Shown here: positions 658 through 57,089 of the stretch, piece after piece
Layout of the letters: each line of letters begins with the position of its first letter
Numbering within the stretch: the stretch's first letter is position 1
NCBI GenBank assembly: GCA_051251595.1
Contig: JBPOFA010000016.1
Location: 10,626-74,625 of the forward strand
Direction: 5' to 3'
DNA: 64,000 bases
DNA from: Marinosulfonomonas sp.
GTDB lineage: Bacteria > Pseudomonadota > Alphaproteobacteria > Rhodobacterales > Rhodobacteraceae
Notes under the pieces: generated by a model
The model's input: only the letters and a program-made list of their open reading frames with translations
Told to the model about the DNA's origin: nothing
Database searches by the model: none
Translations under genes and position numbers: made by a program

Positions 658-1701
658 TCAATTAAGACGATGCCCATCCTCGGCAAACCAATGCAGGTGA
701 TCTTCGTCGATCCGCACCCGGATTTTTCCTCTGGTATGTGGGTCGATGCGATGGCGGAAGACCGCAATAAAGACTTCTCCGCCAATTCGAAGATGGGCGA
801 GCGTTTCGGATCCCAAGGGCTCTATGACGACGACCTCGGCCTCAACGCCCGATTCAGAATCAAGAAGAATATGTTCGGGCCGAACACCGAGGGTCGCGGC
901 GCCGTCGGGCACGTGCGACAGCGGAAACACGGTGCCGTCGCCAATCTGAAAGCCTGAATCGACGGTTTGGCCGTCGGAAAGGTTCATAGATGGGGACCCA
1001 ATGAAGCTGGCCACGAATTTATTGGCGGGGGTGTCGAAAAGCTCCAGCGGGGTGCCGATTTGTTCAATCGTACCGCCTCTCATGACAACAATGCGGTCTG
1101 CCATGGTCATGGCCTCGACCTGGTCATGTGTCACGTAGATGATCGTTGTCTTCAAGCGTTGGTGCAGCTCTTTGATTTCAGCCCGCATCTGAACGCGAAG
1201 TTGGGCGTCAAGGTTCGACAACGGCTCGTCAAAAAGGAATACCTGAGGGTCACGCACAATGGCCCGCCCCATGGCGACCCGTTGGCGTTGTCCGCCCGAA
1301 AGCTGTCGTGGATACCGATCAAGCAACGCCTCCAACCCAAGCACATTGGCGGCCTCTTTGACCGCCTCCGAGATCACATGTTTCGGTGCCTTCTGCAGGC
1401 GCAACGAGAATCCCAAATTCTGGGCAACCGTCATGTGCGGGTAGAGTGCGTAGTTCTGAAAGACCATTGCGACATCGCGATCCTTGGCGGCTACGTTGTT
1501 CACAACCCGGCCGCCTATGGATAGCTTTCCGTCAGAAATATCCTCGAGCCCGGCGATCATACGCAGCAGCGTGGATTTCCCGCAGCCAGACGGTCCAACA
1601 AAGATAACGAATTCACCATCTGCGATGTCAAATGTGATGTCTTTGAGCACGCGGACATCGCCGTAGCTCTTTCCAAGATTGGATATCGTTAGATCGGCCA
1701 T
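658..1701 (-). CDS. Sugar-type ABC transporter ATP-binding protein (MalK/UgpC family)
   Basis: ORF 658..1740. Walker A GPSGCGKST, signature LSGGQRQR, Walker B FLFDEPLS, and a C-terminal MalK-like domain. Start moved to ATG 1701 (MADLTISNL), which is preceded by AGGAGA. Confidence 0.9.
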   Translation of the reverse strand: MADLTISNLGKSYGDVRVLKDITFDIADGEFVIFVGPSGCGKSTLLRMIAGLEDISDGKLSIGGRVVNNVAAKDRDVAMVFQNYALYPHMTVAQNLGFSLRLQKAPKHVISEAVKEAANVLGLEALLDRYPRQLSGGQRQRVAMGRAIVRDPQVFLFDEPLSNLDAQLRVQMRAEIKELHQRLKTTIIYVTHDQVEAMTMADRIVVMRGGTIEQIGTPLELFDTPANKFVASFIGSPSMNLSDGQTVDSGFQIGDGTVFPLSHVPDGAATLGVRPEHILLDSESGVEAEVVVIEPLGSETLAHLRIGGEVFIAVFRHRIDPHTRGKIRVRIDEDHLHWFAEDGHRLN

Positions 1702-1904
1702 CAAATTCTCCTGGTGAATTTTCTTAAGCTCACTGTGCATATTCTCATCGGCGCGGCAACAAAAAACATCTTATTCAATCAAAACCCATCAGTAATCTTC
1801 GTTGTGGTCCGAATGCCCAAAGGTGATCATTGATAATTGAGGCCGGCGATGAACCAGAGTCGTGCCTGCCCCGATATGGGGAAGTGACATGGGAGGAAAG
1901 TGAC

Positions 1905-3206
1905 ATGAATTCGATAGGAATCTCTCGGCGCCGGCTGCTTAAACTGTCCGGAGCTGCGACCGCGGCCGGAGCTTTGGGGCTCGGCTCGCAAGCGTCCTAC
2001 GCGCAATCGGCAAGCGTAAAGGTTTGGGACCAGTATTCGTCAGAACCGATGCGTTCGGCGTTCCAAAAGGTCTTGGACCGGTTTGGCAGTGACGCGGGAT
2101 ACAACCTGATCCGCGAAGTGCAGCTTGGTGCAAGCATCAAGGATATCGCAGCGACAGCCTTGTCTTCGGGAACTGGCCCGGATTTGTTGCAGTACTCAGT
2201 TGGTCAAGGCAACGCCGGCTTGCTTGCGGACGCCAACCTGATCATCCCACTGGACGATTATGCAGCGGAATATGGCTGGCAAGATCGGCTAAGCAGTATC
2301 GCATTGCTAGAGGCCAGTTTGGGGGGCCGGATCTGGGGCGGTCCGCAAGAAAGCGAAGTTAGCATGTTATTTGTGAACAAGACCTTGTTCGCGCAGCTTG
2401 GCCTGGACGTCCCAAGCACGCATGAAGAAATGATTGCGGTTGCAAAAGAGGCCAAGAAGGCGGGCGTTATTGCGCTGGCCTATGGGCAGCAGGACTGGTT
2501 CCCAAGCTGGTGGGCCGCCTCGAATATTTTCGGAAATGCTATGGGCGCGAAGGCCACTGCGGACCTTACGTTCAACAACGTCGGTAGTCTGAACACACCT
2601 GAAGTGGTCGACGGGCTTGAAAAGTTCTGTGTCGAGTTGCCCGAGGCTGGTGCATTTGTGGATCAGGTGAATTCTTTGCCGTTTGGCGATGCGCAGGCTT
2701 TGTTCCAGGCGGGTGGCGCGTTGATGTTGCTGACAGGCACGTGGAGCGTCGGGGCCATCGAAGAAACTATGACTGGCGTTGATGTGGATATCATGCCGAT
2801 GTGGTCCTTTGACGGCAAGCCGCGCGCATATCCAACCGGCTCTGGCTCGGCGATGTATATCTCTGCTGCAAGTGAAGCGAAGGATGAGACCGCCGCCTTG
2901 ATCAACTTCCTTTATGAGGTTGATATGGTGAAACTCATGATCGAAGAGGCAAGCATCATCGGGCCGGTCGAGGTCGATGCATCCACGCTTAACCTCAGTC
3001 ATCTGCAGATGCGATCCGCTCAGTCGGTTTCGACCGGTGATGGTGATCCGGCTGTCACCCAGAGCGCCTTTGTCCATCACGGCTTGGGCGGGTCTAACCT
3101 GCACAAGTTGTTGACAGGGGGCTTCCAAGCGATCTTCTCTGGGGATACGACGGCCAAGGAACTTGCTGCGGATCTGCAAGCGGCCTGGGAAAAAGACAAT
3201 TCCTGA
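1905..3206 (+). CDS. ABC transporter substrate-binding protein, family 1 (carbohydrate/CUT1 type)
   Basis: ORF 1830..3206. Start moved to ATG 1905, preceded by GGGAGGAAAG. Twin-arginine-like signal MNSIGISRRRLLKLSGAATAAGALGL. Length and composition are typical of sugar SBPs. Confidence 0.85.
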   Translation: MNSIGISRRRLLKLSGAATAAGALGLGSQASYAQSASVKVWDQYSSEPMRSAFQKVLDRFGSDAGYNLIREVQLGASIKDIAATALSSGTGPDLLQYSVGQGNAGLLADANLIIPLDDYAAEYGWQDRLSSIALLEASLGGRIWGGPQESEVSMLFVNKTLFAQLGLDVPSTHEEMIAVAKEAKKAGVIALAYGQQDWFPSWWAASNIFGNAMGAKATADLTFNNVGSLNTPEVVDGLEKFCVELPEAGAFVDQVNSLPFGDAQALFQAGGALMLLTGTWSVGAIEETMTGVDVDIMPMWSFDGKPRAYPTGSGSAMYISAASEAKDETAALINFLYEVDMVKLMIEEASIIGPVEVDASTLNLSHLQMRSAQSVSTGDGDPAVTQSAFVHHGLGGSNLHKLLTGGFQAIFSGDTTAKELAADLQAAWEKDNS

Positions 3207-3240: not shown

Positions 3241-4206
3241 ATGACGGACAATGCGTCCAAAGCGGTGTTTTCGCAAAACTCCGATCCCGATACGCCTGAC
3301 GAGACTGGCTGGCGGTTATCCGCCAGTCAGAGACAAGCTGTTTTCGGCTACGCCCTGCTCTTGGGGCCTTTTTTGATTTACGGCTATTTCATGCTGATCC
3401 CGTTGATTCGCACAGCCTATTTCAGCCTGACCAGCTGGAACGGTGTCACAGCCGAAAAAACCTTTGTCGGATTGGACAATTTCGTCCGAATGGCGTTTGA
3501 TCCGCTGTTCTGGGGGGCACTTACGAACACGGCAATTTGGGTCATTGGCGGCACAATTTTTGAGCTGGCCATAGCGTTGCTATTGGCGATGTTGGTTTGG
3601 AACCGACCACGTGGCTTTATGATCTATCGGACCATCTTTTTTATGCCGATGGTCCTGCCTGCTGTCGTTGTGGGGGTCGTGTGGATTTGGATTTACAGTC
3701 CGCTGTTCGGCATTCTGAACAGGGGCCTTAAGACGGTAGGCCTGGAAAGCTGGGCCCTTGGTTGGTTGGGGGATCCAGGCATTGCCCTTTATTCTGTGCT
3801 TGCCGCTTCGATCTGGGCGCATGTCGGGTTGTCCTTTGTGATATTTGTGGCGGCGCTTCAAAACGTGGATGAAGAGCTTTTGGACGCGGCAAAGATCGAC
3901 GGCGCGACCGCTTGGGAAAGATTTTACTTTGTTGTGGTCCCCCAGCTTTCCAACGCGATCACCCTGGTGGCGGTTTTGTTGCTTGTACATGGGTTGAACG
4001 GGTTTGATCTGATCTGGGTCATGACGCATGGCGGCCCCAATGACTCTACTCAAATTCTGGCCACCTATGCCTATGAAACGGCGTTCGTTCAAAACGAGGC
4101 TGGCTATGGTTCAGCCATTGCTTTGGTCCTCGCGGCGATTGCGCTTTTCGTGTCCGTCGCTACGGTCAATATGCGTGAGCGAACAGCAGCGGGGCAATCC
4201 TCATGA
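3241..4206 (+). CDS. ABC transporter permease (MalF/UgpA-like)
   Basis: ORF 3163..4206. Start moved to ATG 3241 with GGGAGG upstream. Multiple hydrophobic helices and the permease EAA loop DAAKIDGATAWERFYFVVVPQL. Confidence 0.85.
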   Translation: MTDNASKAVFSQNSDPDTPDETGWRLSASQRQAVFGYALLLGPFLIYGYFMLIPLIRTAYFSLTSWNGVTAEKTFVGLDNFVRMAFDPLFWGALTNTAIWVIGGTIFELAIALLLAMLVWNRPRGFMIYRTIFFMPMVLPAVVVGVVWIWIYSPLFGILNRGLKTVGLESWALGWLGDPGIALYSVLAASIWAHVGLSFVIFVAALQNVDEELLDAAKIDGATAWERFYFVVVPQLSNAITLVAVLLLVHGLNGFDLIWVMTHGGPNDSTQILATYAYETAFVQNEAGYGSAIALVLAAIALFVSVATVNMRERTAAGQSS

Positions 4207-5045
4207 GCGATTCAGGAAATCCATCGGTCTATACTGCTGCGCGTGTCATTCAATATGTGGTCCTGACGCTCTTTGCGGTTTTGTTTATCCTTCCCTTCAT
4301 TTGGCTTTGGTCGTCGGCGCTCAAGACCCCGGCCGAGATCATGCTTGATCCCTTTGCTTTGCCGAGCGATCCGCAGTGGGGCAATCTAAGCAAGGCTTGG
4401 ACCACGGGCCAGTTCAGCAGCTATATTGGAAATTCGTTTCTGTACTGCGCGATCATTGTGCCGATCGTTTTGGTGTTTTGCAGTGCTGCGGGCTATGCGC
4501 TTGGCAGTCTGCGGGTGCCGGGTGAAAAGATCATCTTTCCAATCTTCTTGCTTGGGATCATGATTCCGATCCAGGCGATCATGATCCCGCAATTCCATCA
4601 AGTCCGGGGACTGGGCTTGCTTGGAAGTGTTGGGGGCATCGTTATACCAGGCGTCGCTGTCGGACTGGCATTCGGTGTCTTTTTGATGCGTGCCTTTTTC
4701 CGTGGGCTGCCCAAAGAAATCGCTCAGGCGGCCAGATTGGATGGGGCGACGGAATGGCAAGTCTTCTGGATGGTCATGTTACCGATGGCGCGATCAGGTC
4801 TGGTCACGCTGGCGGTGTTTCAGTTCATGATTTCCTGGAACATGTTTCTGATCCCGCTACTGTATGGCCAAAGCGAAGGGCTGCGCCCCATTGCCACCGG
4901 CATCCTGTTCTTTATCGGCCGGTTCACGATGGATAGGGGCATGATTGCCGCGGGGGCTACGCTTTCGACCATCCCGATCATCGTCGTGTATTTGCTGTTG
5001 CAACGCTATGTCATTTCCGGCCTGACCGCCGGGGCGGTCAAGTAA
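4203..5045 (+). CDS. ABC transporter permease (MalG/UgpE-like)
   Basis: EAA loop QAARLDGATEWQVFWMVMLPMA and six hydrophobic segments. Start overlaps the upstream stop (ATGA at 4203-4206). Confidence 0.85.
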   Translation: MSDSGNPSVYTAARVIQYVVLTLFAVLFILPFIWLWSSALKTPAEIMLDPFALPSDPQWGNLSKAWTTGQFSSYIGNSFLYCAIIVPIVLVFCSAAGYALGSLRVPGEKIIFPIFLLGIMIPIQAIMIPQFHQVRGLGLLGSVGGIVIPGVAVGLAFGVFLMRAFFRGLPKEIAQAARLDGATEWQVFWMVMLPMARSGLVTLAVFQFMISWNMFLIPLLYGQSEGLRPIATGILFFIGRFTMDRGMIAAGATLSTIPIIVVYLLLQRYVISGLTAGAVK

Positions 5046-5071
5046 GACGATTTTCAGTCAGTGGGGAAAGG

Positions 5072-5099
5072 CCCGGCCGATGCAGTTTGCAGGGCCGGG
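5072..5099. terminator. GC-rich hairpin between convergent genes (candidate bidirectional terminator)
   Basis: CCCGGCC-N14-GGCCGGG lies between the permease stop (5045) and the GH127 stop (5146). There is no clear U-tract. Confidence 0.35.
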
Positions 5100-5145
5100 A
5101 AGGGGGCGGTATTGACGCATGTTGTGCGTCGGCAAAGGCAAGGCT

Positions 5146-7089
5146 TTAGTCCCTTGGTAAGATCGGTAGCCAGACCGCCATTTCTGCATCCCCCCGATTG
5201 TCCCAGGCGAAATAGGGAACGAGCGTTGCTTCGATGCTCTGGAATTGCGGCTGTTCACGGCGCCGATACAGCGTATCGTCCGACCAGTTTTGCGCTTTGC
5301 GCGCCCAGAATTTACCCTTCAGAACCCCAAGCTCTACCCCCGCGACGTCCTGCTTTTCGAAAACGAAATTTGCATCGGGGCCAAGATGCACATCTTCGAC
5401 AGAGACACCCTTTGGCAAGTCGACCGATTCCAGGCAATACACGACCGGCCCTCTTTGGACTGCGACATGATTGTGGTTTTCCTCGACAAGCGGGTGGCTT
5501 TCAATAAGTGCTGGTTCGATCGGCAACGACAAGCCAATTCGATCGCCCGCAGCCCATTCACGTTCTATCGAGACATAGCCATCCGTCAATTCGAGGTTTT
5601 CGATCTTGGTGCCGTTGACTGAAACGGCAAAACTTTCGGCCCAGCCCGGAATGCGAAGCGCAATGGGGAACGTTGTTCCAACGTCTGTTGCCTCGACTAA
5701 AACCTCTATTTCGCCGTCCCAGGGGTAGTCCGACGACATGGTGCATGTGATTGATGTGCCATCTGGCCGTTCAAACGTAACCGTTCCACTGCCATAGAGC
5801 AGGTATGCCGGGCCGCCATTGCGAAGAAACCCCTGCTTGTCCGGGGAACTTGCGACAGTGCGGACGACATTCGGCGGGCAACAAAAGCTTTCGATAAAGT
5901 CTTCACGGTGTGCGCCCCACTTTAGCGAATGCGGGTGGTCGTGCACGCAGCGCAGCGGGTTGGTGTAGAAATAGGCGTCGCCATCCAGGTCAATCCCGGA
6001 CAGGATCGTGTTCAAGAGCGCGCGCTCCATCTCGTCGCCGTATTTGCCTGACCCAAAGGCTTGCGCCATGCGGAAGTTCCACAAATAGCTGCCCACTGTT
6101 GCGCAGGTTTCGTTGTAGCCTGCGACATTTGGCAATTCATAGGCGCGGCCAAAGCTTTGGTGTGTGGTCTGGGTCAGGGCCCGATTGGCAACCCCGTAAG
6201 GCGATACGCCGTCATAAAGCGGTGCACAGCCCCCGGTGATGTACATCTTGCGGGCCACCATGTCGTTCCAGACCGCTTCTAGAACGGTGCGATAGTCTTC
6301 ATCGCCTTTGCCCATGTAAAGATCGGCCAGTCCGGCATAAAGATAGGTTGCGCGAACGCCGTGGCCTACGATCTCACGCTGTTCTTTCGTCGGAGTCCGG
6401 TCCTGATTGTCGTCATTGCCCTCGGGCACCATATCGCGCATCAGGATCAATTTCTCGAGCAGGTCGAGATAGCTTTGGTCTTGCGTGATCCTGTAAAGCT
6501 CGGCCAGCCCCATATAGTGTGACGGGCAGATGGCCGTGCGGGGGGTGGCCTCTCCTAGATTTGAGAATTGCTTTGCAATGTAGCCGGCTGCGCGCTTGCC
6601 CAGTTCCAGAAGGTTTGTTTTGCCCGTGGTCTGATAATGCGTGGCGCCGGCGCTCATTAGATGGCCCATGTTGTACACCTCAAAATTGAGGTCGTCGCCC
6701 AGTTCCTCATAGGCGCCGTTGTTGCGGCGTTGAATGGCGTCGTAGGTAAAGATGTAACCGTCGTCGCGTTGCACTTTGGCGATGGTTTCAATGATCTTGT
6801 CCAGCTCTTGGTGCCAGCCCGCGTCGTCAGACGCACCGTAGACCCTGATCGCCCCTTCAAGCCACTTGTAGACGTCGCCATCCCAAAAGGGGGGACCATC
6901 ATGTTCGCCCTCAGCTTCACCTACGGCAATTCGGAAATTCCGCCATGCGGGGGCGATTTCTTCATTCTGGTAGAGCGACCACATATGCGGAACCATTTGA
7001 TTGCGGCACGTGTCCCACCGGTCTTTCCAGAAGCCACCCGTCCATTTTCCGGTGACGTTGCCTTGCGACAATAAAGCATTCATATCCAT
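5146..7089 (-). CDS. Glycoside hydrolase family 127 protein (DUF1680; HypBA1-type beta-L-arabinofuranosidase-like), cytoplasmic
   Basis: ORF 5146..7140. Start moved to ATG 7089 (MDMNALL), preceded by AGGGAGAG. Contains NETCATVG and SFCCPPNVV, matching the Glu/Cys3 zinc site and Cys nucleophile motif of GH127 enzymes. No signal peptide. Confidence 0.85.
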   Translation of the reverse strand: MDMNALLSQGNVTGKWTGGFWKDRWDTCRNQMVPHMWSLYQNEEIAPAWRNFRIAVGEAEGEHDGPPFWDGDVYKWLEGAIRVYGASDDAGWHQELDKIIETIAKVQRDDGYIFTYDAIQRRNNGAYEELGDDLNFEVYNMGHLMSAGATHYQTTGKTNLLELGKRAAGYIAKQFSNLGEATPRTAICPSHYMGLAELYRITQDQSYLDLLEKLILMRDMVPEGNDDNQDRTPTKEQREIVGHGVRATYLYAGLADLYMGKGDEDYRTVLEAVWNDMVARKMYITGGCAPLYDGVSPYGVANRALTQTTHQSFGRAYELPNVAGYNETCATVGSYLWNFRMAQAFGSGKYGDEMERALLNTILSGIDLDGDAYFYTNPLRCVHDHPHSLKWGAHREDFIESFCCPPNVVRTVASSPDKQGFLRNGGPAYLLYGSGTVTFERPDGTSITCTMSSDYPWDGEIEVLVEATDVGTTFPIALRIPGWAESFAVSVNGTKIENLELTDGYVSIEREWAAGDRIGLSLPIEPALIESHPLVEENHNHVAVQRGPVVYCLESVDLPKGVSVEDVHLGPDANFVFEKQDVAGVELGVLKGKFWARKAQNWSDDTLYRRREQPQFQSIEATLVPYFAWDNRGDAEMAVWLPILPRD

Positions 7090-7252
7090 TTCTCTCCCTA
7101 CACGGTTAAATCTTTCATCCGAACGTTCTTTGTTGGACAAGGTCGAAATCAGTCGGACAGGCCATCAACTTTATCGAGCAATGGCCGATGCCCAATTCCT
7201 GGCGCATCCGACGGCATGAGGTCTCTAGTCTTGGTCGCATCGAAAAAGGGGG

Positions 7253-8536
7253 TCATCCTTTCGTTTTCTCCTCGTCCAAAGCGGCGAAATCGTCAAACAG
7301 ACGCTCTGCGCCCAACTGCCCGCCTTTTAGAAGTATCTGAATCCCGTCGCGATCGGGGCGGTCGCTGCGTGTGGTGCAGATACATGTTCCGCACCCGAAC
7401 CTGGTTCGATAGGCCAGCCCCCAAATGTCGATGTTCTGCGCCACGGCGCTAGACGTGTCTCCTCCGGCAATGGCAAGCCGCTTGACGGGTGCGCGGTCTA
7501 GGACCGCATCGACAAGTCTGCCGCATTCATCTGAAAACCCCCGTTTTGCCCGTGTGGGGCGAGGGCGGTCTGGCGCCGAGGAGGCAATTAAGACATTGCG
7601 CCCCGCATTCAAATCAGAGGCTGCCGCATCAATAAGCCCAGTTCGGAACGGTTCCGACGTGATGGTTTCGGGTTCAACCTGGTATTTTCTGTAACTTTGC
7701 GCGGCAGCGATCTGGGCGCTTGTGGCTTGTGACAGGCTTCCTGCGAATGCAAGCACAGGCCCTTTGAAAGCGGGGGCCTGGAAAAGCGGAGCAACGTTTC
7801 GTTTTGCGAACCAGGCCTCGGCAACACCGCTTGCGCCCAGAACAGCAAACGACCCCTCGCAAGCATGGAGCATGGCCCCAAATTGATCGACGTGGTGTTG
7901 CGTCAGGGCGTCGAACAAAACAAACTCGGCATCCGTGGCGGTTAGCCGTTTCGCAAGGTCTTTTGCTGGGATGGTTTCAAGATCCACAAAGGAAATCGCG
8001 TCGGTCTTGGTGGCCCCAAGATCGTTCAGGTGGCGCGTTAGGTCGGCCTCTACCATTGGCGTTGAAGGGTGTTGGCTCATTGTTGGATGTCGGTCCAGCC
8101 GGTAGGTGCTGTCCCCAAACTTTGCGAAAAGGTTTGAGAATACACAGTACCGCTCCAGCGACGGCTGACCGCCCAGAACCGCAACTGTGGCGCTTGTGGT
8201 GTGGCTTGCCAGGACTTTGGCGGCGCTTGCAAGGTTTCCGACGGATTTCGCGCTGTCAAAGGTTGAACAGCATTTGTAATTCAAAACCTTGCATTCTGAA
8301 TCGCGAAAGAAACGGCCTGCGCGATCCAGCTTGGATGCTATGTCCGCATTGCCCATGGTTCTGGTTGCCCCGGCAATCCCTATGGCGTCGAGCGCGCCAA
8401 TATCGGCCAGCTTTGCGTCATCCGGCACCTCTAGAAACAAGAAAGCGCGGTGGCCGCGTTCGGCGATGGTCGCAAGCATATCTGTTGCGCCGGTGAAATC
8501 GTCGCCGTACCACCCGTATGTAGGGCGGTTTTTCAT
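7253..8536 (-). CDS. Four-carbon/branched acid-sugar kinase family protein (DUF1537)
   Basis: ORF 7253..8755. The real start is ATG 8536 (MKNRPTYGWYGDDFTGATD, the typical DUF1537 N-terminus). It overlaps the RLP stop as ATGA. The Arg-rich extension upstream of it is non-coding shadow. Confidence 0.85.
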   Translation of the reverse strand: MKNRPTYGWYGDDFTGATDMLATIAERGHRAFLFLEVPDDAKLADIGALDAIGIAGATRTMGNADIASKLDRAGRFFRDSECKVLNYKCCSTFDSAKSVGNLASAAKVLASHTTSATVAVLGGQPSLERYCVFSNLFAKFGDSTYRLDRHPTMSQHPSTPMVEADLTRHLNDLGATKTDAISFVDLETIPAKDLAKRLTATDAEFVLFDALTQHHVDQFGAMLHACEGSFAVLGASGVAEAWFAKRNVAPLFQAPAFKGPVLAFAGSLSQATSAQIAAAQSYRKYQVEPETITSEPFRTGLIDAAASDLNAGRNVLIASSAPDRPRPTRAKRGFSDECGRLVDAVLDRAPVKRLAIAGGDTSSAVAQNIDIWGLAYRTRFGCGTCICTTRSDRPDRDGIQILLKGGQLGAERLFDDFAALDEEKTKG

Positions 8537-9798
8537 GTCCGTGGGCCGAAGAAGTCGTATGCGCGATCGAGGGCCGCGCTGTTTTTTCGTGCTGTGTTCA
8601 CGTCGACACCTTCCAACACGGCCTGCCATGCATCGCGCAAACTTTGCACCCCGGCCGCTCCTCCATCTGGATGCGCAAGAATGCCGCCGCCCGCCATGAA
8701 AAGAAGATCTGCCGTGCCCGTGGCCTGATAGGTCAGCGGCACGGTGCCTGCCCATTGGCCGTTGGAAAATGCAGGCAAGACACGGTCATCCGTGTTTGCC
8801 ATCGGTGTCAGGCAGGCCTGAGCCCCGACAACGACCTCTTCGTCTTTTTGCGCGAACTTGCCCTGCAATCCGTGCACATGAAAGTGATCCACCCCCGACA
8901 GCCGCCAAAGCGCTTGGTAGGCCTCGATGCCAATGCCAAGTGCCGGATGTCGTGACACGGCGCCATAACCGTTTCGGTGCGCATGCAGGGCCATATCAGT
9001 GCTCTTGCGCAGGGTTTGGGCGGCAGAAAAGCCGCACCAGTTCATGCTGAACATAGCGCAACTGCCCCCTTCGGCCTGGATGAGATCAAGGTGCCGTTGC
9101 ATGGCGCTGGTTTCGTCGCTGATGTTGAAACCGACCATTACGTTCTTGCCGGTGCGTTCACGGTGGTCGCGGATAACTTTCATGACCGCCGGCACGCGTT
9201 GTGCAAGGGGCGCATGGACCGGGTCGGCGCAAATTTCGTCGTCCTTAATAAAGTCCACACCTGCCTCGCACAGCGTGCGAACGATGTCTGCGGTGTCCTG
9301 TGCGGTCATGCCCACATTCGGTTTGATGATTGTCCCAATCATCGCGCCCGTTTCGACGCCTGCGGCCGAACGGGTTCCCGCGACACCAACCTGTGGCAAG
9401 GGAAACTGCGCCCGGTATTCGGGGGAGAGCGTAATCCGCTCTAGCCGAAGTCCGGTGGTCTCGCCCAGATCGAACAAGTTGCCTGCAACGGTCGCCACAA
9501 GCGTGGGCAAGTTGGCGCCCACATTGGCTACAGGAAAACGTAACCGGATTTTCGCCCTTTCAACGGGGCCGTTCAACCCTTTGCGGGAAAGCCATGCGCT
9601 TGGAAGGGAAGGCGAAACCTGACCCAGGCTTTCGACGCTGACCACCTCTGCACGGGCGCGCAGGCGCAATGCGTCGGTCTCACCAGAAACGCGTGTGAAG
9701 GTGCCGCAGGATTGTTCGCCGGCCATCGTCGCCGCAACGGCCCCTGGGGCAAGGGGCGTTTCGATAAGATAGTCGGCTTCGAAATGATCTGGGGACAT
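8533..9798 (-). CDS. RuBisCO-like protein (form IV RLP, large-subunit homologue)
   Basis: 421 aa with the RuBisCO large-subunit motif series GEQSCGTFT, AGNLFD, IIKPNVGM, GVDFIKDDE, HAHRNG, DHFHVHGLQGK and MAGGG. No small subunit or phosphoribulokinase gene is nearby. Confidence 0.9.
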   Translation of the reverse strand: MSPDHFEADYLIETPLAPGAVAATMAGEQSCGTFTRVSGETDALRLRARAEVVSVESLGQVSPSLPSAWLSRKGLNGPVERAKIRLRFPVANVGANLPTLVATVAGNLFDLGETTGLRLERITLSPEYRAQFPLPQVGVAGTRSAAGVETGAMIGTIIKPNVGMTAQDTADIVRTLCEAGVDFIKDDEICADPVHAPLAQRVPAVMKVIRDHRERTGKNVMVGFNISDETSAMQRHLDLIQAEGGSCAMFSMNWCGFSAAQTLRKSTDMALHAHRNGYGAVSRHPALGIGIEAYQALWRLSGVDHFHVHGLQGKFAQKDEEVVVGAQACLTPMANTDDRVLPAFSNGQWAGTVPLTYQATGTADLLFMAGGGILAHPDGGAAGVQSLRDAWQAVLEGVDVNTARKNSAALDRAYDFFGPRT

Positions 9799-9810
9799 CC
9801 ACTGTTCCTG

Positions 9811-10350
9811 TTAGACGCGGGATAGATCCGGGAATGGCCGCACGGGGTCCGAACCGTCCCAGTCTTTTGCGGCAAGGCGAATGGCGTCAAAAAGTCTGCC
9901 CTTTGGGCCGGCCACTTCGGACAATTCGACCACGGCACCGGGATGGAATTCAGTGTCAAAATAGACGAAACGTCCATCGCTGCCGACTTGGCCGCCCATG
10001 ACCACTTCGAACCCTTTTTCTTGGGCGCGCGCCAGATCAGCGTCGAAAGAGGACGTCCAGAACGCGACGTGCTGCAGACCGAAATTACCCGCACGCATAA
10101 AGTCACGATACATTGATGGCACATCGTTTCGGGTTTGGATCAGCTCAACCTGAACCGAGCCGGAATTTGCCAAGGCAACCGAGTTGCGTGGGGCGTAGCT
10201 TTCGCCCCGATATGTGTAGTTTTCAATCGGTACCTCTGGCGCATAGAAAAACGGCCCGACACCAAGCACGTTGGCCCAGTAATCCATTGCCGCTTCGATA
10301 TCCTCAACGACATAACCCAATTGGCGGATTTCCCCAAAAATGTGACTCAT
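9811..10350 (-). CDS. VOC (glyoxalase/bleomycin resistance/dioxygenase) family protein
   Basis: 179 aa. N-terminal IRQLGYVVEDIEAAMDYW and a second beta-alpha-beta-beta-beta module (GLQHVAFW) are typical of VOC-fold proteins. It is the first gene of the minus-strand operon. Confidence 0.75.
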   Translation of the reverse strand: MSHIFGEIRQLGYVVEDIEAAMDYWANVLGVGPFFYAPEVPIENYTYRGESYAPRNSVALANSGSVQVELIQTRNDVPSMYRDFMRAGNFGLQHVAFWTSSFDADLARAQEKGFEVVMGGQVGSDGRFVYFDTEFHPGAVVELSEVAGPKGRLFDAIRLAAKDWDGSDPVRPFPDLSRV

Positions 10351-10440
10351 CTGCGGTCTTTCGAAATTTCCTCTGGTTCGACATTGTATTCCATCATAAG
10401 ACTGATGGGGTCAAACCGGGTTTATGATTGGATTTGATTG

Positions 10441-11493
10441 ATGGCTAGTGATCGAAAATATCGCGTGACAGTGGAAAGTGTTGCGGAACGTGCCGGCGTT
10501 TCGACAGCAACGGTGGACCGTGTTCTGAACCAGCGAAGCGGTGTTCGCAGAATGACAGCAAAACGCGTGCTGCAAGCTGCTTCAGAGTTGGGGTATATCG
10601 ACGAATATGACGGCGCGACTTTGGAATTGGGCCCAAAGGCGCGTATCGCCTTTCTTCTTCCCAAGGGCACAAATCGTTACATCAACATGCTTGGACGTAC
10701 GATCGTCGGAATGACGGACGAATTCGCCAAGGCTGGCATGCGGCCTACCATTGAATATATCAGTTCCTTCAATGCTGACGCTCTTGCAAAGGCGATGCGG
10801 CGACAAGCCAAGACGGCTGACGGTTTGGCGATCATGGCGATCGATCACCCTTCTGTGCGCGAGATGGTCAACCGACTTGCCCAGGAAGGAAAGCCGATTG
10901 CCACGGTGATCAGCGACACCACGGCAACAAGCCGGGTTGCCTATTTCGGGCTGGACAATCGGGCGGCGGGGCGCATGGCTGGCTATCTGATCGGTCGATT
11001 TCTGCCCGGTGGCGAAGGCAAGGTTGCAATGGTTGCGGGCAGCCGCACCTATCGGGCGCATGGGGATCGCGAAATGGGGTTCATGGACATCAACCATGAA
11101 ATGTTCCCCGGCGTCGAGGTTGTAGACGTGCGCGAAGGGCAGGACGATGATCAATCGAATTATCATCACGTCAGATCCTTGCTAACCCAGCATCCGGATA
11201 TCCGTGCGATTTATAACATCGGTGGCGCGGCAACCGGTGTCGGCAAGGCGCTTCGATATATGAAACGGAACAAGGACGTCGTCTTTGTGGGCCATGGCCT
11301 GACCGACGACACGCGCGAGATGCTGCTGGACGGCACCATGTCTGCGGTGATCACTCAGGATGCTGTCGACACGGTGACACGGTGCATCCGATTGTTTTCG
11401 GATATCCGGTCTGAGGGTGCGCCGCCCAGGCTGCCTGAACCGATGCGGATTGAGGTGGTCTTTCGCGAAAACCTGGCGACGCCACGGTTTTAG
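10441..11493 (+). CDS. LacI family transcriptional regulator
   Basis: N-terminal HTH VTVESVAERAGVSTATVDRVLNQ followed by a periplasmic-binding-protein-like sugar-binding fold. Divergent from the VOC-RLP operon. ATG at 10441; the track starts at TTG 10438. Confidence 0.9.
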   Translation: MASDRKYRVTVESVAERAGVSTATVDRVLNQRSGVRRMTAKRVLQAASELGYIDEYDGATLELGPKARIAFLLPKGTNRYINMLGRTIVGMTDEFAKAGMRPTIEYISSFNADALAKAMRRQAKTADGLAIMAIDHPSVREMVNRLAQEGKPIATVISDTTATSRVAYFGLDNRAAGRMAGYLIGRFLPGGEGKVAMVAGSRTYRAHGDREMGFMDINHEMFPGVEVVDVREGQDDDQSNYHHVRSLLTQHPDIRAIYNIGGAATGVGKALRYMKRNKDVVFVGHGLTDDTREMLLDGTMSAVITQDAVDTVTRCIRLFSDIRSEGAPPRLPEPMRIEVVFRENLATPRF

Positions 11494-11609
11494 GGCTGCC
11501 GTTTTGGCTGCCAAATATCACAGTTGCAGGCAGGGCGATCATGTCGCTTATGCGGGCTTTGCGCGGTCTGGTCAGCGCAAAGACCAACGCGGCTGCGACG
11601 CCTTAACTG

Positions 11610-11621
11610 TTTGTCGACAAA
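11610..11621. promoter_or_regulatory. Perfect 12-bp palindrome TTTGTCGACAAA (GntR/FadR-type operator-like)
   Basis: Read directly from the sequence. It lies between the convergent 3' ends of the LacI and GntR genes and shares the TGTCGACA core with the site at 12440. Confidence 0.3.
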
Positions 11622-11640
11622 GTCTTGGGGGCAAATCTGA

Positions 11641-12357
11641 CTAAAGCGTGAGCAGGGCGTTCTGGCGGTTGTCTGCAGAAATAAACGATTGAATTTGCGT
11701 CACAATTTGATCGGCATGTGCGCGGGCCAGGGTGTCGGCCAGCATCACGTCCCGATCTATGATGGCCGCGATGATGTCTTCATGCTCTGATACATATTGC
11801 TGGGGAAGCTTGTCGTTGAATGTCGCATAATAAAGCCGCAAGATACGGCGACCTTCGTCAAGCAGACGTGTGAAAAGGTCTGTGTAATATTGATTGCCGC
11901 CGGCTTTGGCTATGGCCACATGAAAATCGCGGTTGATTGCGATCATCCCCAGCACATTTTGTTCTTTCACGTTGCGGGTGAAATCATCTTGAAATGCCCG
12001 GATCGTCGCAATGTCTTCGGCTTTGTGATTTGCAGCCGCCAACCGCGTTGTGGTTCGGTACATCAATGTTAAGGCGTCAAAGAAATTCGGAAGGTTGAGG
12101 AAATCAATATTCGACACAATGGTCGCGCGATTGGTCAGCGTTGTGATCAAACCTTCGGCAGACAGGCGCACCAATGCCTCACGGACGGGAGTGCGCGACA
12201 GGGAAAACCGCTCTGCAAGCAGCCCTTCGTCAATCGGGCTGCCTGGGGCGATCTTTAGTTCAATAATTTCATTTTTGAGGATTTCGTAAACATAAGACAC
12301 GCCTGCGCCGCGTTTTAACTGTGTCGGTGGTGAAGGCTTGCCTTTGGTTTGCGTCAT
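11641..12357 (-). CDS. GntR family transcriptional regulator (FadR/FCD subfamily)
   Basis: Winged-HTH segment LSRTPVREALVRLSAEGLI followed by an all-helical FCD-like C-terminal domain. Divergent from the peptide ABC operon. Confidence 0.9.
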   Translation of the reverse strand: MTQTKGKPSPPTQLKRGAGVSYVYEILKNEIIELKIAPGSPIDEGLLAERFSLSRTPVREALVRLSAEGLITTLTNRATIVSNIDFLNLPNFFDALTLMYRTTTRLAAANHKAEDIATIRAFQDDFTRNVKEQNVLGMIAINRDFHVAIAKAGGNQYYTDLFTRLLDEGRRILRLYYATFNDKLPQQYVSEHEDIIAAIIDRDVMLADTLARAHADQIVTQIQSFISADNRQNALLTL

Positions 12358-12439
12358 TCAAAATGGGTCCTGTTTCTGTCTTGGCGTTCAATTTTGCATT
12401 TTTTTAAGGATACGGCCATATTCTAGGTTAAATTACTTT

Positions 12440-12447
12440 TGTCGACA
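12440..12447. promoter_or_regulatory. TGTCGACA palindrome in the GntR/peptide-SBP divergent intergenic region (candidate GntR operator)
   Basis: Context is tTTTGTCGACAtAAa. It fits the generic FadR-subfamily t.GT.N.AC.a pattern and sits 83 bp upstream of the GntR start in an AT-rich stretch. Confidence 0.4.
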
Positions 12448-12848
12448 TAAAAAATACTAACAACCTGAATCGGTGACAACGGGCGAGGTCGATTAACGCC
12501 GGAATTTATGTTGTTGCCGGCGGGGGCCGTTCTCGCACTCGGCCGGCGCATCGCAGCTGATCAGCAAAGGCACTTCTTTTCAGGACGTAGCCGCAATCTA
12601 CCCGGTCTTTGATCTGGGGGCATTGTCCGGTGTTGTGCCTAGGCCGTCGAACGTCCCCGAATCATGATCACCGGATCTGCTGCAAAAAATGCGCATGCGA
12701 CGCAGCCATGACTTGGCTTGAGGTGACTAAAATTTAGGCATTACCAACTGAAACTACATTGAAAATACAAATAGTATTTTTAACGTGGACGAGAAAAAAA
12801 CACACTGTTAACGTTCGGTGACAATTAAACGACAATCAGGGAAATGTA

Positions 12849-14600
12849 ATGAAAGTACTTAAACTCTCGAAGTCGGCTCTCCAAACTACGGCTATTTGCA
12901 CGGCGATGGTGCTTTTGCAGGCGGGTGGCGCAATGGCCGCCGACGTGCAAAAGGGCGGGACCCTCAAAATCGTTGGTACGGCTGATCTGGATCACTTTGA
13001 CCCGACAAGTGCGGCACTTGTGACCACGAACAACTTTCTGCGTGCGACGCAGCGGACCTTGATCGGGTACAATTCCTCTACGGATGAAGATGAGCGTATT
13101 CGCCCTGTTGGCGATCTCGCAGTCGAAGTGCCTCAGCCGACCAATGGCGGTCTGACCTATACATTTAAGTTGCGTGATGGCGCGATGTGGAATGCGCCAA
13201 CCGGTGCGCGGCAAATCACATCGGTTGACTTTGAACGCGGCATGAAACGCATGTGCAACCCTGCGCTTGGCTCGGCTGCTCTTACATATTTTGTAACGCT
13301 GATCGACGGCATGGAAAGCTTCTGTGACGGGTTTGCAGAGGTAGAGCCAACCGTTGAGGCCATGAAGGCCTATATTCAGGACAACGATATTTCTGGCATT
13401 ACCCAGCCTGACGACTTGACCGTTGAAATCACCCTGACTGAAACGGCGGGCGACTTTGTTTACATGGTGTCTTTGCCGACATCCTCACCTGCACCGATCG
13501 AAGTTCTGGATTTCATGCCAGACGGACCGGAGTATCGTGAAAATTACATTGCGTCGGGCCCTTACACACCTGTTGATTATGTGCCCGATGGATCGCTGAA
13601 ACTGGATCGTAACCCAGCTTGGTCTGCCGATGCGGATCCACTGCGCGGTGCCAATGTTGACGCTATTGAAATCACCTTTGGCGTGCAGCCCGACGCGGCG
13701 ATCCAACAGCTTCAGGCTGGCAATGCTGACATGGTGTATGACATCACGATCCCTCCCGCTATTCTGTCACTTTTGACCGCGACTGCGGATCCCAAAGTGA
13801 TGACAATGTCTGCTGGGCGGACCGCGTTCTTGTTCATTAATACAGTTTCCGAAAACAACAATGGCGCGTTGAAAGACCTGCGGGTGCGTCAGGCGTTGAA
13901 CTACGCCATCGACAAAGCGGCGCTGGTTCAGCAAATGGGTGGCCCAACAGTTGCGCAACCGCAAAACGGCATCTTTGGGCCGGGCGTTCTGGGCTTCCAT
14001 GAGTTCGATCTGTACCCATCAGAAGGGCACGCAGGCGACCCGGAAAAAGCCCGCGCGCTTTTGGCTGAAGCTGGGTATCCTGATGGCATCACGCTGAAAA
14101 TGCCGTACCGGAACCAGAACAACATGCCGGAAATCGCCCAGACCATTCAGGCGGCCATGGCAGAGGCAGGGATCACGCTTGAGCTGACACCTGTAACGGC
14201 CTCGGACTACTATTCCAAGTTCATGACCAATCCGCTTAACACGCAAGAAGGTGCTTGGGACATTGCGCCTGTAGGTTGGGCCCCTGACTGGGTCGGCGGG
14301 GCTGCACGTTCTGTTTTCCAGCCGCAATTCTCGTATGACGGTCGTCACCAGACCTATAACTACACGGACTACAACAACGACAAAGCCAACGAGATTGCCA
14401 AACAGGCGATCAACGCGACCACGCCTGAAGATGCTGCAAAGCTTTGGGGCGAAGTCGATGTCTTGGTCATGACAGATGCGCCGGTCGTTCCGTATTACAC
14501 GGAACAGGTCGTTCTTTATCGCGGTCCTGCCGTAGAGAACTTCCAGCCATACGCTCTTGGTGGGCAAGGGGACTGGACGAACGTTTGGCTTAACCGCTGA
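12849..14600 (+). CDS. ABC transporter substrate-binding protein, family 5 (oligopeptide/dipeptide type)
   Basis: 583 aa with signal peptide MKVLKLSKSALQTTAICTAMVLLQAGGAMA. Size and composition are typical of DppA/OppA-like SBPs. Confidence 0.9.
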   Translation: MKVLKLSKSALQTTAICTAMVLLQAGGAMAADVQKGGTLKIVGTADLDHFDPTSAALVTTNNFLRATQRTLIGYNSSTDEDERIRPVGDLAVEVPQPTNGGLTYTFKLRDGAMWNAPTGARQITSVDFERGMKRMCNPALGSAALTYFVTLIDGMESFCDGFAEVEPTVEAMKAYIQDNDISGITQPDDLTVEITLTETAGDFVYMVSLPTSSPAPIEVLDFMPDGPEYRENYIASGPYTPVDYVPDGSLKLDRNPAWSADADPLRGANVDAIEITFGVQPDAAIQQLQAGNADMVYDITIPPAILSLLTATADPKVMTMSAGRTAFLFINTVSENNNGALKDLRVRQALNYAIDKAALVQQMGGPTVAQPQNGIFGPGVLGFHEFDLYPSEGHAGDPEKARALLAEAGYPDGITLKMPYRNQNNMPEIAQTIQAAMAEAGITLELTPVTASDYYSKFMTNPLNTQEGAWDIAPVGWAPDWVGGAARSVFQPQFSYDGRHQTYNYTDYNNDKANEIAKQAINATTPEDAAKLWGEVDVLVMTDAPVVPYYTEQVVLYRGPAVENFQPYALGGQGDWTNVWLNR

Positions 14601-14624
14601 TCTGACGCGAAGACCTTTCTTGGG

Positions 14625-14660
14625 CCAAGCCGCAGCCACCTCCCTATGGCTGCGGCTTGG
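14625..14660 (+). terminator. Strong intra-operon stem-loop after the SBP gene (attenuator/partial terminator)
   Basis: CCAAGCCGCAGCC-N10-GGCTGCGGCTTGG is a 13-bp perfect stem, extendable by G-U and G-C pairs. It is followed by tccccaatttcc and lies 24 nt after the SBP stop. Confidence 0.5.
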
Positions 14661-14720
14661 TCCCCAATTTCCTTATATTGACGACACAGTTCCGCCCGCG
14701 GAACGACGAATGGAACGAAA

Positions 14721-16582
<1,862 letters not shown>

Positions 16583-16586
<4 letters not shown>

Positions 16587-18522: not shown

Positions 18523-18529
18523 GGTTTTC

Positions 18530-27811: not shown

Positions 27812-28520
27812 TAACGAAGTGCCTAATTCCAAGTTGGACTTACGTTACCTTACGTAACCTGTCTAATGCCATCGCCAGTGTTCGTTTACAAGTGTTCTCC
27901 CGAGGACTGGTTCACCTAAATATCTTCGGGCAAAGGTTCCCTAATAAAACTTTGATTTTTGGCGCTGCCATGCATAGGGCCTGATGACTGTGGGGATTTC
28001 ACGGCAGCGATGATTGGCATTCTTTGGCACCGACCTGACCATATTTGCGCGTGTGCTTATTTGGTGTCGTCTTTCTTTCATGATCTGGGTCATGTGGCCC
28101 GTGTTGGTCCGACGAACTGATCGACGCAAACAGTGCTGGCGGCATTGGTTAACCGCTCGGGGGCATGTCAGGCGATTTCAAGCCTGGCACCAGGGCACGT
28201 CGAATACCCGCCCCGGCACTGCGTCTTCAAGGTCTCAAGCATTTCGATCCAATCAACTGCAATGCCGGCGGCGACGTGCTTAACCGATCAGATGTCTGGG
28301 CGACCTCGTCATTCCAAATGTCCTGATTGCGGGATGGCGAGAAAGTAACGATAGTATTCTGTCCCGGCTTTTGGTTGCCATAGTATAAGTTCGTCCATTT
28401 CTGCGGTGTTGATCTTTGCTGCCGCCAAGGGGTGTTTTTCTGTTGGATTTTCAAGGTGGCACGACAAAGGATAGCTTAACAATTGTCCTGACCCCCACAG
28501 ACACCGGTTTTGTATTCCCT

Positions 28521-36417: not shown

Positions 36418-36575
36418 GATGCAAATGCTCTATTGGGTTAACGTAATGTTATGAATGCAGCAAAAACAGCAATTGAAGTTCAGAGCTACTTAACGCTAAT
36501 CTTACCTGTGGGCAACTTTATCCATTTGCCACAGAGATTTATGAGGAAAGCGGCGCCGCCGCATTGGGAGGAACT

Positions 36576-42853: not shown

Positions 42854-42857
42854 AGGA

Positions 42858-57088: not shown

Positions 57089-57089
57089 T

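Follow-up and report, generated by a model that had tools for sequence, protein, structure and literature searches.

The window analyzed here is a 64-kb stretch of DNA from a metagenome-assembled genome of a marine Roseobacter-group bacterium, Marinosulfonomonas sp. (assembly GCA_051251595.1, contig JBPOFA010000016.1). It carries, head to tail on the minus strand, genes for a VOC-fold protein, a RuBisCO-like protein (RLP), a DUF1537 kinase, and a glycoside hydrolase of family GH127, with a divergent LacI-family regulator and an adjoining CUT1-type ABC importer (Table 1). An earlier note on this DNA had described this gene order and the ATGA at 8533-8536, in which the RLP stop codon overlaps the kinase start, and all of these features are present in the sequence. 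The note also envisaged that an imported furanosyl oligosaccharide is cleaved in the cytoplasm and that a branched or acidic sugar is phosphorylated and then processed by the RLP, an outline that our computational evidence supports. We think it likely that the locus encodes some undescribed acid-sugar route of this architecture. More specifically, we propose, with a probability of roughly 55%, that it is a LacI-repressed regulon for a glycoside containing aceric acid (AceA), a rare branched sugar and a signature component of rhamnogalacturonan II (RG-II), the most complex plant polysaccharide.

The VOC and RLP genes are spaced 12 bases apart, and the kinase and GH127 genes are separated by a gap of 169 bp in which no terminator-like site was found; terminator and promoter scans were otherwise uninformative. 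The longest open reading frame for GH127 begins at TTG 7140, with ATG 7083 favored by gene callers and homologues, and for the LacI gene ATG 10441 is likelier than TTG 10438. Independent gene calls on an identical metagenomic contig place these starts at 7083 (645 aa) and 10441. NCBI gives the four operon proteins (MGJ8586103-106) only generic names. A tblastn search of the 64-kb window found no homologues of ApsD, ApnL, or ApnO, the apionate-pathway genes that the earlier note had listed as missing, and none of GH78, transketolase, racemase, or BKACE. Rhamnose, apiose, or other RG-II genes were looked for across the rest of the window and none were found.

Table 1. Genes and candidate regulatory sites of the locus (positions in the 64-kb window)
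Feature	Position	Strand	Description
ABC ATPase, MalK/UgpC type	658-1701	-	347 aa; Pfam ABC_tran + OB_MalK + TOBE_2; NCBIfam UgpC subfamily, 497 bits
Operator-like motif ATCAAAACCCATCA	1778-1791	+	between ATPase and substrate-binding protein genes
CUT1 substrate-binding protein (SBP) with Tat signal	1905-3206	+	Pfam SBP_bac_1/SBP_bac_8 + TAT_signal; divergent from ATPase gene
ABC permease 1	3241-4206	+	Pfam BPD_transp_1
ABC permease 2	4203-5045	+	Pfam BPD_transp_1
GH127	5146-7083	-	645 aa; three GH127 Pfam domains
DUF1537 kinase	7253-8536	-	427 aa; PF07005 (SBD_N) 146 bits + PF17042 (NBD_C) 69.5 bits
RuBisCO-like protein	8533-9798	-	421 aa; Pfam PF00016 + PF02788
VOC-fold protein	9811-10350	-	179 aa; Pfam PF13669 (Glyoxalase_4), 84 bits
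Palindrome CCATCAtaagacTGATGG	10391-10408		just after TTTGAC (-35-like) box read towards VOC
Operator-like motif, second copy ATCAAATCCAATCA	10425-10438	-	directly upstream of LacI start
LacI-family regulator	10441-11493	+	Pfam LacI HTH + Peripla_BP_4

The first three genes of the operon belong to a module that is conserved across many bacteria. A search with the RLP returned thousands of homologues, the 120 best of which are all at least 64% identical to the window RLP. An RLP alignment scan with one genome per species gave 535 related loci, and we kept the best 80 (RLP identity 62-66%), which include members of Variovorax, Azospirillum, Bosea, Acidovorax, Achromobacter, Microvirga, and Paraburkholderia; gene content in high-GC loci was established by tblastn and targeted Pfam scans. 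The VOC gene (64-75% identical) lies directly upstream of the RLP gene in 78 of the 80 loci and the kinase gene directly downstream in 77, and orthologues of the LacI regulator (44-76% identical) are nearby in nearly all. Between LacI and VOC, these loci encode a TRAP transporter, either DctP with a fused DctQM or with separate DctQ and DctM. No conserved genes were found in the 80 loci beyond LacI, TRAP, VOC, RLP, and kinase; ApnO, ApnL, and ApsD were absent from all of them, and none encodes a GH127 or a CUT1 system. In these 80 loci, the adjacency that the earlier note had put forward held for VOC, RLP, and kinase and not for GH127. PGAP assigns the VOC protein, RLP, and kinase generic names only, and no NCBIfam model (June 2026) claims any of the three.

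The composition of this module narrows the range of possible substrates. A TRAP system suggests that the substrate is a carboxylate, and the lack of an oxidoreductase suggests that it already bears a carbonyl. AceA, an aldose that carries a carboxylate, fits both requirements, and we propose from gene content that the TRAP-type operons of most other bacteria feed free AceA to the LacI-VOC-RLP-kinase module. A close relative of the TRAP SBP encoded in the Azospirillum operon is PDB entry 4OAN (448 bits), which we take to be R. palustris RPB_2686 with density modeled as (S)-2-acetolactate, a tertiary alpha-hydroxy-beta-keto acid that has its core in common with the ketose proposed below. 2-Acetolactate has been reported as a TRAP ligand, according to a review. 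Some TRAP-type loci carry additional genes upstream of LacI: on Azospirillum argentinense Az39 plasmid p2 (L084, 1-3238) and in a second locus (L004, 3249-5227), these encode an acetolactate-synthase-like thiamine diphosphate enzyme, a BKACE ("3-keto-5-aminohexanoate cleavage protein"), and a DMT transporter, possibly linked to the module. Loci from Roseivivax and Paracoccus are also flanked by a DMT transporter.

When relatives were sought from the GH127 side, the complete architecture of the window was found to recur. At least three other divergent lineages share the order LacI, VOC-RLP-kinase-GH127, permease-permease-SBP, in which GH127 and the ABC genes are convergently oriented. One lineage is represented by three marine run assemblies (L085-87), in which GH127 is 77% and the RLP 74% identical to the window proteins; the others are JGI contigs of 254 kb and 679 kb (L088 and L089), in which the identities are 56% for GH127, 67% for the RLP, 53-60% for the SBP, and 66-76% for the permeases. 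Over the other GH127-type loci as a whole, orthologue identity is 53-79% for the SBP, 66-83% for permease 1, and 75-94% for permease 2. GC content across the window, L085-87, L088, and L089 spans 54 to 67% (64-67% in L088 and L089 versus 55% in the window). In the window, L085-87, L088, and L089, GH127 and the orthologous CUT1 ABC system replace the TRAP genes, suggesting that this substrate can also enter the cell as a glycoside. A matrix of RLP identities scatters the GH127-type loci within the VOC-linked clade, with L088 and L089 nearer to TRAP-type Microvirga than to the window; this indicates that the transporter swap took place more than once or was passed on laterally. L088 (11954-12880) and L089 (11956-13643) have a D-2-hydroxyacid dehydrogenase gene between GH127 and the ABC permeases, joined in L089 by an SDR gene, and a galactonate-dehydratase-like MR_MLE gene adjoins LacI in L088; these inserted genes may act on the pathway product or the aglycone.

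A further locus, L178 (ENA ERZ23496362 scaffold_325, 4280-13868), keeps the LacI, VOC, GH127, and ABC genes and lacks the RLP and kinase genes between VOC and GH127. Retention of VOC beside GH127 in this locus suggests that the VOC enzyme is tied directly to the GH127 product. L178 also encodes a 2-hydroxyacid dehydrogenase, and there the operator motif described below and the TTTGAC box also precede a gene pair for an MR_MLE enolase-superfamily protein and an ApbA reductase, which suggests a different downstream route.

Candidate operator sites link the importer to the catabolic genes. The 14-nt pattern ATCAAANNCNATCA has exactly two matches in the 64 kb, one at the ABC promoter and one at the LacI/VOC promoter region (Table 1), versus 0.07 expected from shuffled sequence, and none of 100 shuffles contained two. 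Across loci L001-L176, about 60 of the 80 TRAP-type loci carry the pattern in the intergenic region between LacI and the transporter; it was found in no locus that has GH127 without VOC and LacI (L090-L176). In every other GH127-type locus (L085, L088, L089, L178), the motif is present upstream of the SBP gene. Because the motif occurs at both promoters, the ABC importer would belong to the same regulon as the VOC-RLP-kinase-GH127 operon. Two elements recur in the LacI/VOC intergenic regions of GH127-type and TRAP-type loci alike: a motif close to CATCAAAANCCATCA with the TTTGAC box after it, and a CATCA-N6-7-TGATG palindrome, which comes after TTTGAC in L085, L029, L089, and L178. The palindrome at 10391-10408 in the window is probably a repressor site over the VOC promoter. 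The lack of GH127 in the 80 RLP-related loci had suggested that its adjacency in the window is fortuitous; the architecture of L085-87, L088, L089, and L178 and the common operator motif led us to reject this. The recurrent gene order and the motif common to both promoters make the arrangement more than chance.

The RLP and the kinase are related to, and distinct from, the enzymes of D-apionate catabolism. The best NCBIfam match of the RLP is OiaX, at 403.7 bits, under the equivalog cut-off of 700; it is 38-47% identical to OiaX in all, and 38-44% to the proteins that PGAP labels OiaX on rhizobial and Paracoccus plasmids, and the VOC-linked RLP clade is separate, at 40-47% identity to OiaX. 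The best kinase matches are OiaK (NF042436; 240 bits against a cut-off of 700) and OtnK (152 bits against 350). At every annotated apionate locus examined, ApnO, ApnL, and ApsD are present, recognizable as an ApnO-type "phosphogluconate dehydrogenase C-terminal domain" protein, a Gfo/Idh/MocA dehydrogenase, and a lactonase of about 620 aa. Membership of the apionate pathway was rejected for the window on the scores under cut-off and on the absence of these three genes from the window and from all 80 VOC-type loci, which bears out the earlier note's statement that the locus matches no described apiose or apionate route. The best PDB matches are 3NWR for the RLP (576 bits) and 5DMH for the kinase (110 bits), both structural-genomics entries without assigned function. 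The kinase has the two-domain build (SBD_N + NBD_C) of DUF1537 acid-sugar kinases.

Alignment of the RLP with RuBisCO shows which active-site positions it has kept. Residues E60, T65, N123, K175, K201, D203, E204, H294, R295, H327, K334, S379, and G403/G404 of RuBisCO correspond to E28, T33, N107, K159, K185, D187, E188, H274, R275, H307, K314, S345, and G370/G371 of the window RLP, respectively, and K177 and H298 are replaced by N161 and Y278. The absence of K177 and H298 is consistent with a mono-phosphate substrate. Identity as a bona fide RuBisCO (forms I-III) is excluded by the incomplete catalytic set and the catabolic context, and the score of 212 bits against the rubisco_III model does not reach its cut-off of 497. 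The VOC-linked RLP clade shares this pattern of kept and lost residues, including the equivalents of E60, N123, H327, and K334; in PGAP-labeled OiaX, the positions of E60, N123, and H327 are occupied by D, G, and Q. These three residues are associated in RuBisCO with carboxylate handling and hydration.

The VOC protein, which has the paired beta-alpha-beta-beta-beta modules of its superfamily, is the only candidate isomerase in the operon. Family members are 71-81% identical, and Q10, E69, H94, and E142, at the metal-ligand positions of methylmalonyl-CoA epimerase (MMCE), are invariant and form a putative metal tetrad. An AlphaFold2 model (pLDDT 90) gave 3GM5, MMCE, and glyoxalase I as top Foldseek matches (TMq 0.5-0.67, 15-29% identity). 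The score against the methylmalonyl-CoA epimerase model TIGR03081 (26 bits) does not reach the cut-off of 114.95, so the fold alone is held in common. Glyoxalase I offers a precedent within the superfamily for a 1,2-proton shift through a metal-bound enediolate.

The specificity of the GH127 enzyme is suggested by its relatives and by the genes that surround them. BT1003 is a GH127 aceric acid hydrolase encoded in the RG-II polysaccharide utilization locus (PUL) of Bacteroides thetaiotaomicron (PMC13501991). The only NCBIfam match of the window GH127 is the model "aceric acid hydrolase" (NF049879), at 783 bits over model positions 27-657 of 657. Among PDB entries, 5MQO, presumably BT1003, ranks first with 565 bits, ahead of 4QJY (335), 6EX6 (298), and HypBA1 (228). 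The catalytic and Zn-site motifs NETCA (E/C) and FCCPPN (CC) are conserved relative to 5MQO and invariant in homologue alignment A2. As the earlier note had stated, the window enzyme has no signal peptide: by eye, its N-terminus MNALLSQGNVTGKW lacks a hydrophobic signal segment, and in the 5MQO alignment, which starts at its residue 12, this residue faces residue 44 of the periplasmic BT1003. A role as a 3,6-anhydro-D-galactosidase or beta-L-arabinofuranosidase was considered for the window GH127 and is unsupported by the PDB ranking and by the context of its homologues.

Homologues that are 52-62% identical to the window GH127 lie beside genes for GH78, GH106, GH95, a GH140-like apiosidase, a split-transketolase/FGGY apiose pathway, or apionate lactonase. 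In Paraglaciecola, a pair of 1200-aa GH78 rhamnosidases is accompanied by an MFS transporter, a rhamnulose-phosphate-aldolase fusion, and the split transketolase, FGGY kinase, and sugar isomerases of the known apiose route. In Marinihelvus, the neighbors are ApnO, apionate lactonase, a TonB-dependent receptor, and a triad of RLP, kinase, and racemase. L177 and L179 combine GH106, GH95, and GH42 with an apiosidase, an esterase, and a CUT1 ABC system. From their family assignments, these neighbors are tools for the aceric acid-rhamnose-apiose (AceA-Rha-Api) stub of RG-II side chain B. The AceA-Rha-Api trisaccharide is reported to be secreted by B. thetaiotaomicron (2026 preprint, bioRxiv 10.64898/2026.03.13.711244). 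The Marinihelvus locus (L091, Marinihelvus fidelis VYXP01000005.1; GH127 60% identical) also encodes a GH140-like DUF5060 protein, an MFS transporter, and a GntR regulator, and is apparently a compact system for the whole stub.

A wider survey covered the neighbors of BT1003-like GH127 genes in 87 loci, namely the window, 6 other loci, and 80 further metagenomic ones whose GH127 is 38-63% identical to that of the window, by clustering and Pfam scans. The neighbors include an Asp/Glu-racemase-fold protein (34 loci), CUT1 permeases (26-27), BKACE (23), GH78 (21), split transketolase (19-20), FGGY kinase (15), two clusters of DUF1537 kinases (14 and 11), and RLPs (10). Gene orders such as RLP-kinase-racemase-GH127 (L104), GH127-GH78-esterase-RLP-kinase-racemase (L113), racemase-GH127-GntR-kinase-BKACE (racemase, BKACE, and this kinase type occurring together in 11 loci), and apiosidase-racemase-GH127-BKACE-GH78 on human-gut contigs were observed. 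No locus among those examined has both VOC and the racemase-fold protein. Since apiose and rhamnose genes account for two of the sugars of the stub, AceA is the leftover sugar for the leftover genes, which appear to encode a proton-transfer enzyme, a DUF1537 kinase, and a beta-keto-acid C-C enzyme. The VOC, kinase, and RLP of the window would fit this scheme of three roles, VOC taking the part of the racemase-fold protein. Racemase-, kinase-, or BKACE-flanked BT1003-like GH127 genes were seen in L104, L113, L126, L136, L138, L140, L142, L144-L152, L161, L164, L167, L170, and L173; the flanking racemase-fold protein (about 226 aa) is unannotated and has no NCBIfam match and the kinase (about 480 aa) is divergent, with 48 bits to DtnK. 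Together these genes appear to make up a second version of the pathway, built from non-orthologous enzymes.

The chemistry of AceA suggests how the operon could act. L-Aceric acid, OHC-CHOH-C(OH)(COO-)-CHOH-CH3, has no primary hydroxyl, and an aldose-to-ketose shift is needed to bring its carboxylate into the beta position relative to a carbonyl; lacking a primary hydroxyl, it would need an isomerase before or around the kinase step. In the pathway we propose, the CUT1 ABC system, with its SBP as the receptor, would import an AceA-containing oligosaccharide, plausibly L-AceAf-alpha-1,3-L-Rha with or without apiose, and the cytoplasmic GH127 would free L-aceric acid (3-C-carboxy-5-deoxy-L-xylose). 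The VOC enzyme would catalyze a metal-assisted 1,2-proton shift converting the aldose to the 2-ketose 2-(1-hydroxyethyl)-2,4-dihydroxy-3-oxobutanoate, and the DUF1537 kinase would phosphorylate the new primary hydroxyl adjoining the ketone. The reverse order is also conceivable, with the kinase acting first on the anomeric hydroxyl and VOC then isomerizing the 1-phosphate. The ketose, HOCH2-CO-C(OH)(COO-)-CHOH-CH3, is 3-oxo-isoapionate with CH(OH)CH3 replacing CH2OH, and this homology would explain why OiaK and OiaX are the nearest characterized relatives of the kinase and RLP. ApnO would be dispensable because AceA already has the "iso" carbon skeleton.

Two outcomes of the RLP step can be envisaged. 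An OiaX-like decarboxylation would give 5-deoxy-L-pentulose 1-phosphate, which an aldolase encoded elsewhere would split into dihydroxyacetone phosphate (DHAP) and acetaldehyde. Alternatively, an OiaC-like transcarboxylase/hydrolase would yield 3-phosphoglycerate and lactate. We slightly prefer the OiaC-like outcome, which is favored by the retained equivalents of RuBisCO E60, N123, H327, and K334 and by the lack of a conserved aldolase in more than 80 operons.

Several points weigh against AceA as the substrate. The GH127 score is under the NF049879 equivalog cut-off of 950, so the specificity of the enzyme is drawn from relatedness and from its homologues' context; our equation of 5MQO with BT1003 is presumptive, and the entry is deposited under an arabinofuranosidase name. 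No genes for the degradation of RG-II chain B were found beside GH127 in the window itself, and the window has no rhamnose or apiose catabolic genes to serve the aglycone. AceA is a very minor sugar, and the TRAP-type operon is widespread, being found also in Achromobacter, Bordetella, and Pandoraea, which are not known as pectin scavengers; the free acid could therefore be a commoner compound with the same core. MMCE-like VOC enzymes and Asp/Glu racemases usually act by removing the proton from the carbon alpha to a carboxylate or thioester. In AceA this carbon, C3, is quaternary, which leaves no proton for the usual chemistry of either superfamily. The aldose-ketose role given to VOC takes glyoxalase I as its sole precedent, and the protein may be an epimerase at another step. 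BKACE does not fit the proposed quaternary beta-keto acid, since its canonical mechanism needs an alpha-hydrogen. Finally, some GH127-linked RLP/kinase pairs, such as that of Marinihelvus with ApnO and ApnL nearby, may serve apionate.

One alternative interpretation, which we consider unlikely, is that the same architecture handles another sugar, an unidentified branched or keto acid furanose from, for example, a marine or bacterial glycan, and that the TRAP-type operons take up that acid or a common tertiary alpha-hydroxy-beta-keto acid metabolite. The sub-threshold GH127 score, the presence of the TRAP-type operon in taxa not known to scavenge pectin, and the want of other RG-II genes in the window are all consistent with such a substrate, as is the ligand that 4OAN, the SBP relative, appears to have been modeled with, acetolactate and not a sugar. 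AceA is nevertheless the only acidic GH127 substrate we know of, and genes for RG-II chain B or for apiose surround every GH127 relative examined at 52-62% identity. Acetolactate was rejected as the true substrate, as it offers no hydroxyl usable by a DUF1537 kinase.

We see two further readings as much less probable than that one. One, which we consider very unlikely, makes the RLP a divergent OiaX or OiaC and the kinase a divergent OiaK, with D-apiose-derived 3-oxo-isoapionate as their substrate; ApsD, ApnL, and ApnO would then be encoded elsewhere or partly replaced by VOC. OiaX and OiaK are indeed the best NCBIfam matches, apiose neighbors AceA-Rha in RG-II, and Marinihelvus joins GH127, RLP, and kinase with ApnO and ApnL; against this, the scores of 404 and 240 bits and the 38-47% RLP identity are low, the three marker genes that accompany annotated apionate loci are missing from the window and the VOC-type loci, a cofactor-less VOC protein cannot carry out the NAD-dependent oxidation of ApnO, and GH127 is not an apiosidase family. 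We give even less credence to the idea that GH127 and the ABC system constitute ordinary HypBA1-type uptake of a beta-L-arabinofuranoside and stand by accident next to an acid-sugar module of unrelated function. The founding members of GH127 are beta-L-arabinofuranosidases, Bifidobacterium couples cytoplasmic HypBA1 to ABC import, and the 80 closest genome relatives of the RLP have no GH127. Yet loci of differing GC background, with GH127 identity down to 56%, show the same adjacency and orthologous ABC genes, the ABC promoter bears the operator motif of the module, and the otherwise universal TRAP transporter is missing in exactly the GH127-type loci; moreover, characterized arabinofuranosidases are much weaker matches than 5MQO (228-335 versus 565 bits), and no araA/B/D-type genes are nearby.

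If AceA is the substrate, the combined loci suggest a broader picture, which we offer tentatively and with the odds somewhat against it: a three-step AceA pathway through an orphan RLP clade (including 3NWR), the kinase, and VOC, with the RLP yielding 3-phosphoglycerate and lactate, that has been built at least three times by non-orthologous displacement. The isomerase would be either VOC or the Asp/Glu-racemase-fold protein, the C-C cleaving enzyme would be RLP or BKACE, and AceA would reach the pathway either free, through TRAP, or as a glycoside, through ABC import and cytoplasmic GH127.

The remainder of the window contains genes of other kinds. The genes at 11641-21615, which have no connection with the aceric acid finding, encode a GntR/FCD regulator and, after it, a peptide ABC system of Opp type (with SBP_bac_5, a fused double ATPase, and a pair of permeases) together with an alpha/beta hydrolase and a prolidase/creatinase-like M24 peptidase. 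A 487-aa open reading frame without a Pfam match lies at 26369-27832. An AP_endonuc_2 TIM barrel and an HPPD-N/VOC fusion (3-dehydroshikimate-dehydratase-like) beside a shikimate-dehydrogenase-like gene (28521-31255, minus strand) probably serve quinate/shikimate catabolism. An IS transposase (DUF772 + DDE domain; 34443-35231, plus strand) adjoins a LysR-regulated TTT transporter (TctC 36564-37571, TctA 38118-39626). The genes at 42227-45906 (minus strand), encoding a methyltransferase and DUF3419 protein (BtaB/BtaA-like betaine-lipid synthesis), a PlcP-like metallophosphoesterase, and a "Branch" glycosyltransferase, look like a phosphate-starvation membrane-lipid remodeling cluster, as known in marine roseobacters. 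Imelysin, di-haem oxidoreductase, a second imelysin, and DUF1513 genes (54300-59176, plus strand) form an iron-acquisition-type module.

No description of aceric acid catabolism was found in the literature searched, including a 2026 review and the 2026 RG-II preprint. Relative to known RLP/DUF1537 acid-sugar pathways, the first enzyme, the proposed substrate, and the coupling to a glycoside hydrolase would be new. If our proposal is correct, it supplies a concrete three-enzyme route for AceA and gives a function to a widespread orphan RLP clade with a solved structure (3NWR), to an orphan group of DUF1537 kinases, to a very conserved VOC family, and to a crystallized TRAP binding protein (4OAN). 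It would also provide a new reaction context in the evolution of the RuBisCO superfamily. It also points to a cross-feeding link in pectin turnover, in which Proteobacteria of soils, the rhizosphere, and the sea would scavenge AceA or the AceA-Rha-Api secreted by Bacteroides.

Comparison with known systems places the proposed pathway among several partial precedents. The D-apionate RLP pathways reportedly proceed through ApnO and OiaK to either the OiaX decarboxylase or the OiaC transcarboxylase/hydrolase. They resemble the proposed route in that a DUF1537 kinase and an RLP form a translationally coupled pair, that the sugar is a branched 2-hydroxy-3-oxo acid drawn from RG-II, and that phosphorylation falls on the CH2OH adjoining the ketone. 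In contrast, the window locus has VOC in the stead of ApsD, ApnL, and ApnO, its proposed substrate bears CH(OH)CH3 and would arise from an aldose by isomerization rather than from an aldonate by oxidoisomerization, and uptake in loci with this module is coupled to a glycoside hydrolase or a TRAP system. The L-threonate and D-erythronate pathways, which are said to use the OtnI isomerase, OtnK kinase, and OtnC decarboxylase, follow the same logic of ketol isomerase, DUF1537 kinase, and beta-keto acid decarboxylase with a ketose phosphate as product, and OtnK is the second-best family match of the kinase. Their isomerase, however, is a TIM barrel rather than a VOC protein, their decarboxylase has a class-II-aldolase fold rather than that of an RLP, and they need an upstream dehydrogenase and use unbranched C4 acids.

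Salvage of 5-deoxyribose and methylthioribose (DrdK/DrdI/DrdA; MtnK/MtnA) likewise turns a 5-deoxy-pentofuranose, through a kinase and an aldose-ketose isomerase, into a 5-deoxy-pentulose 1-phosphate. MtnW and the R. rubrum RLP resemble the proposed enzyme in acting on a 1-phospho-2-keto sugar, and the end products DHAP and acetaldehyde would be shared if the decarboxylase route applies. Unlike the window system, these salvage pathways use other kinase and isomerase families and have no carboxyl branch, and their RLPs are much weaker matches (129-151 bits with the MtnW models). The HypBA1 systems of Bifidobacterium also place a CUT1 importer and an intracellular exo-acting GH127 under a LacI-type regulator, but HypBA1 itself is distant (228 bits compared with 565 for 5MQO), and the downstream genes here are not arabinose genes. 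The closest counterpart of the window GH127 is BT1003, which reportedly belongs to an RG-II PUL of B. thetaiotaomicron: the two align over their full length, the catalytic motifs are kept, and NF049879 is the sole family match. We know of no description of the fate of AceA in Bacteroides. BT1003 belongs to a periplasmic SusC/D-type PUL, whereas the window enzyme has no signal peptide, is predicted to be cytoplasmic and ABC-fed, and is encoded in one operon with candidate enzymes for its product.

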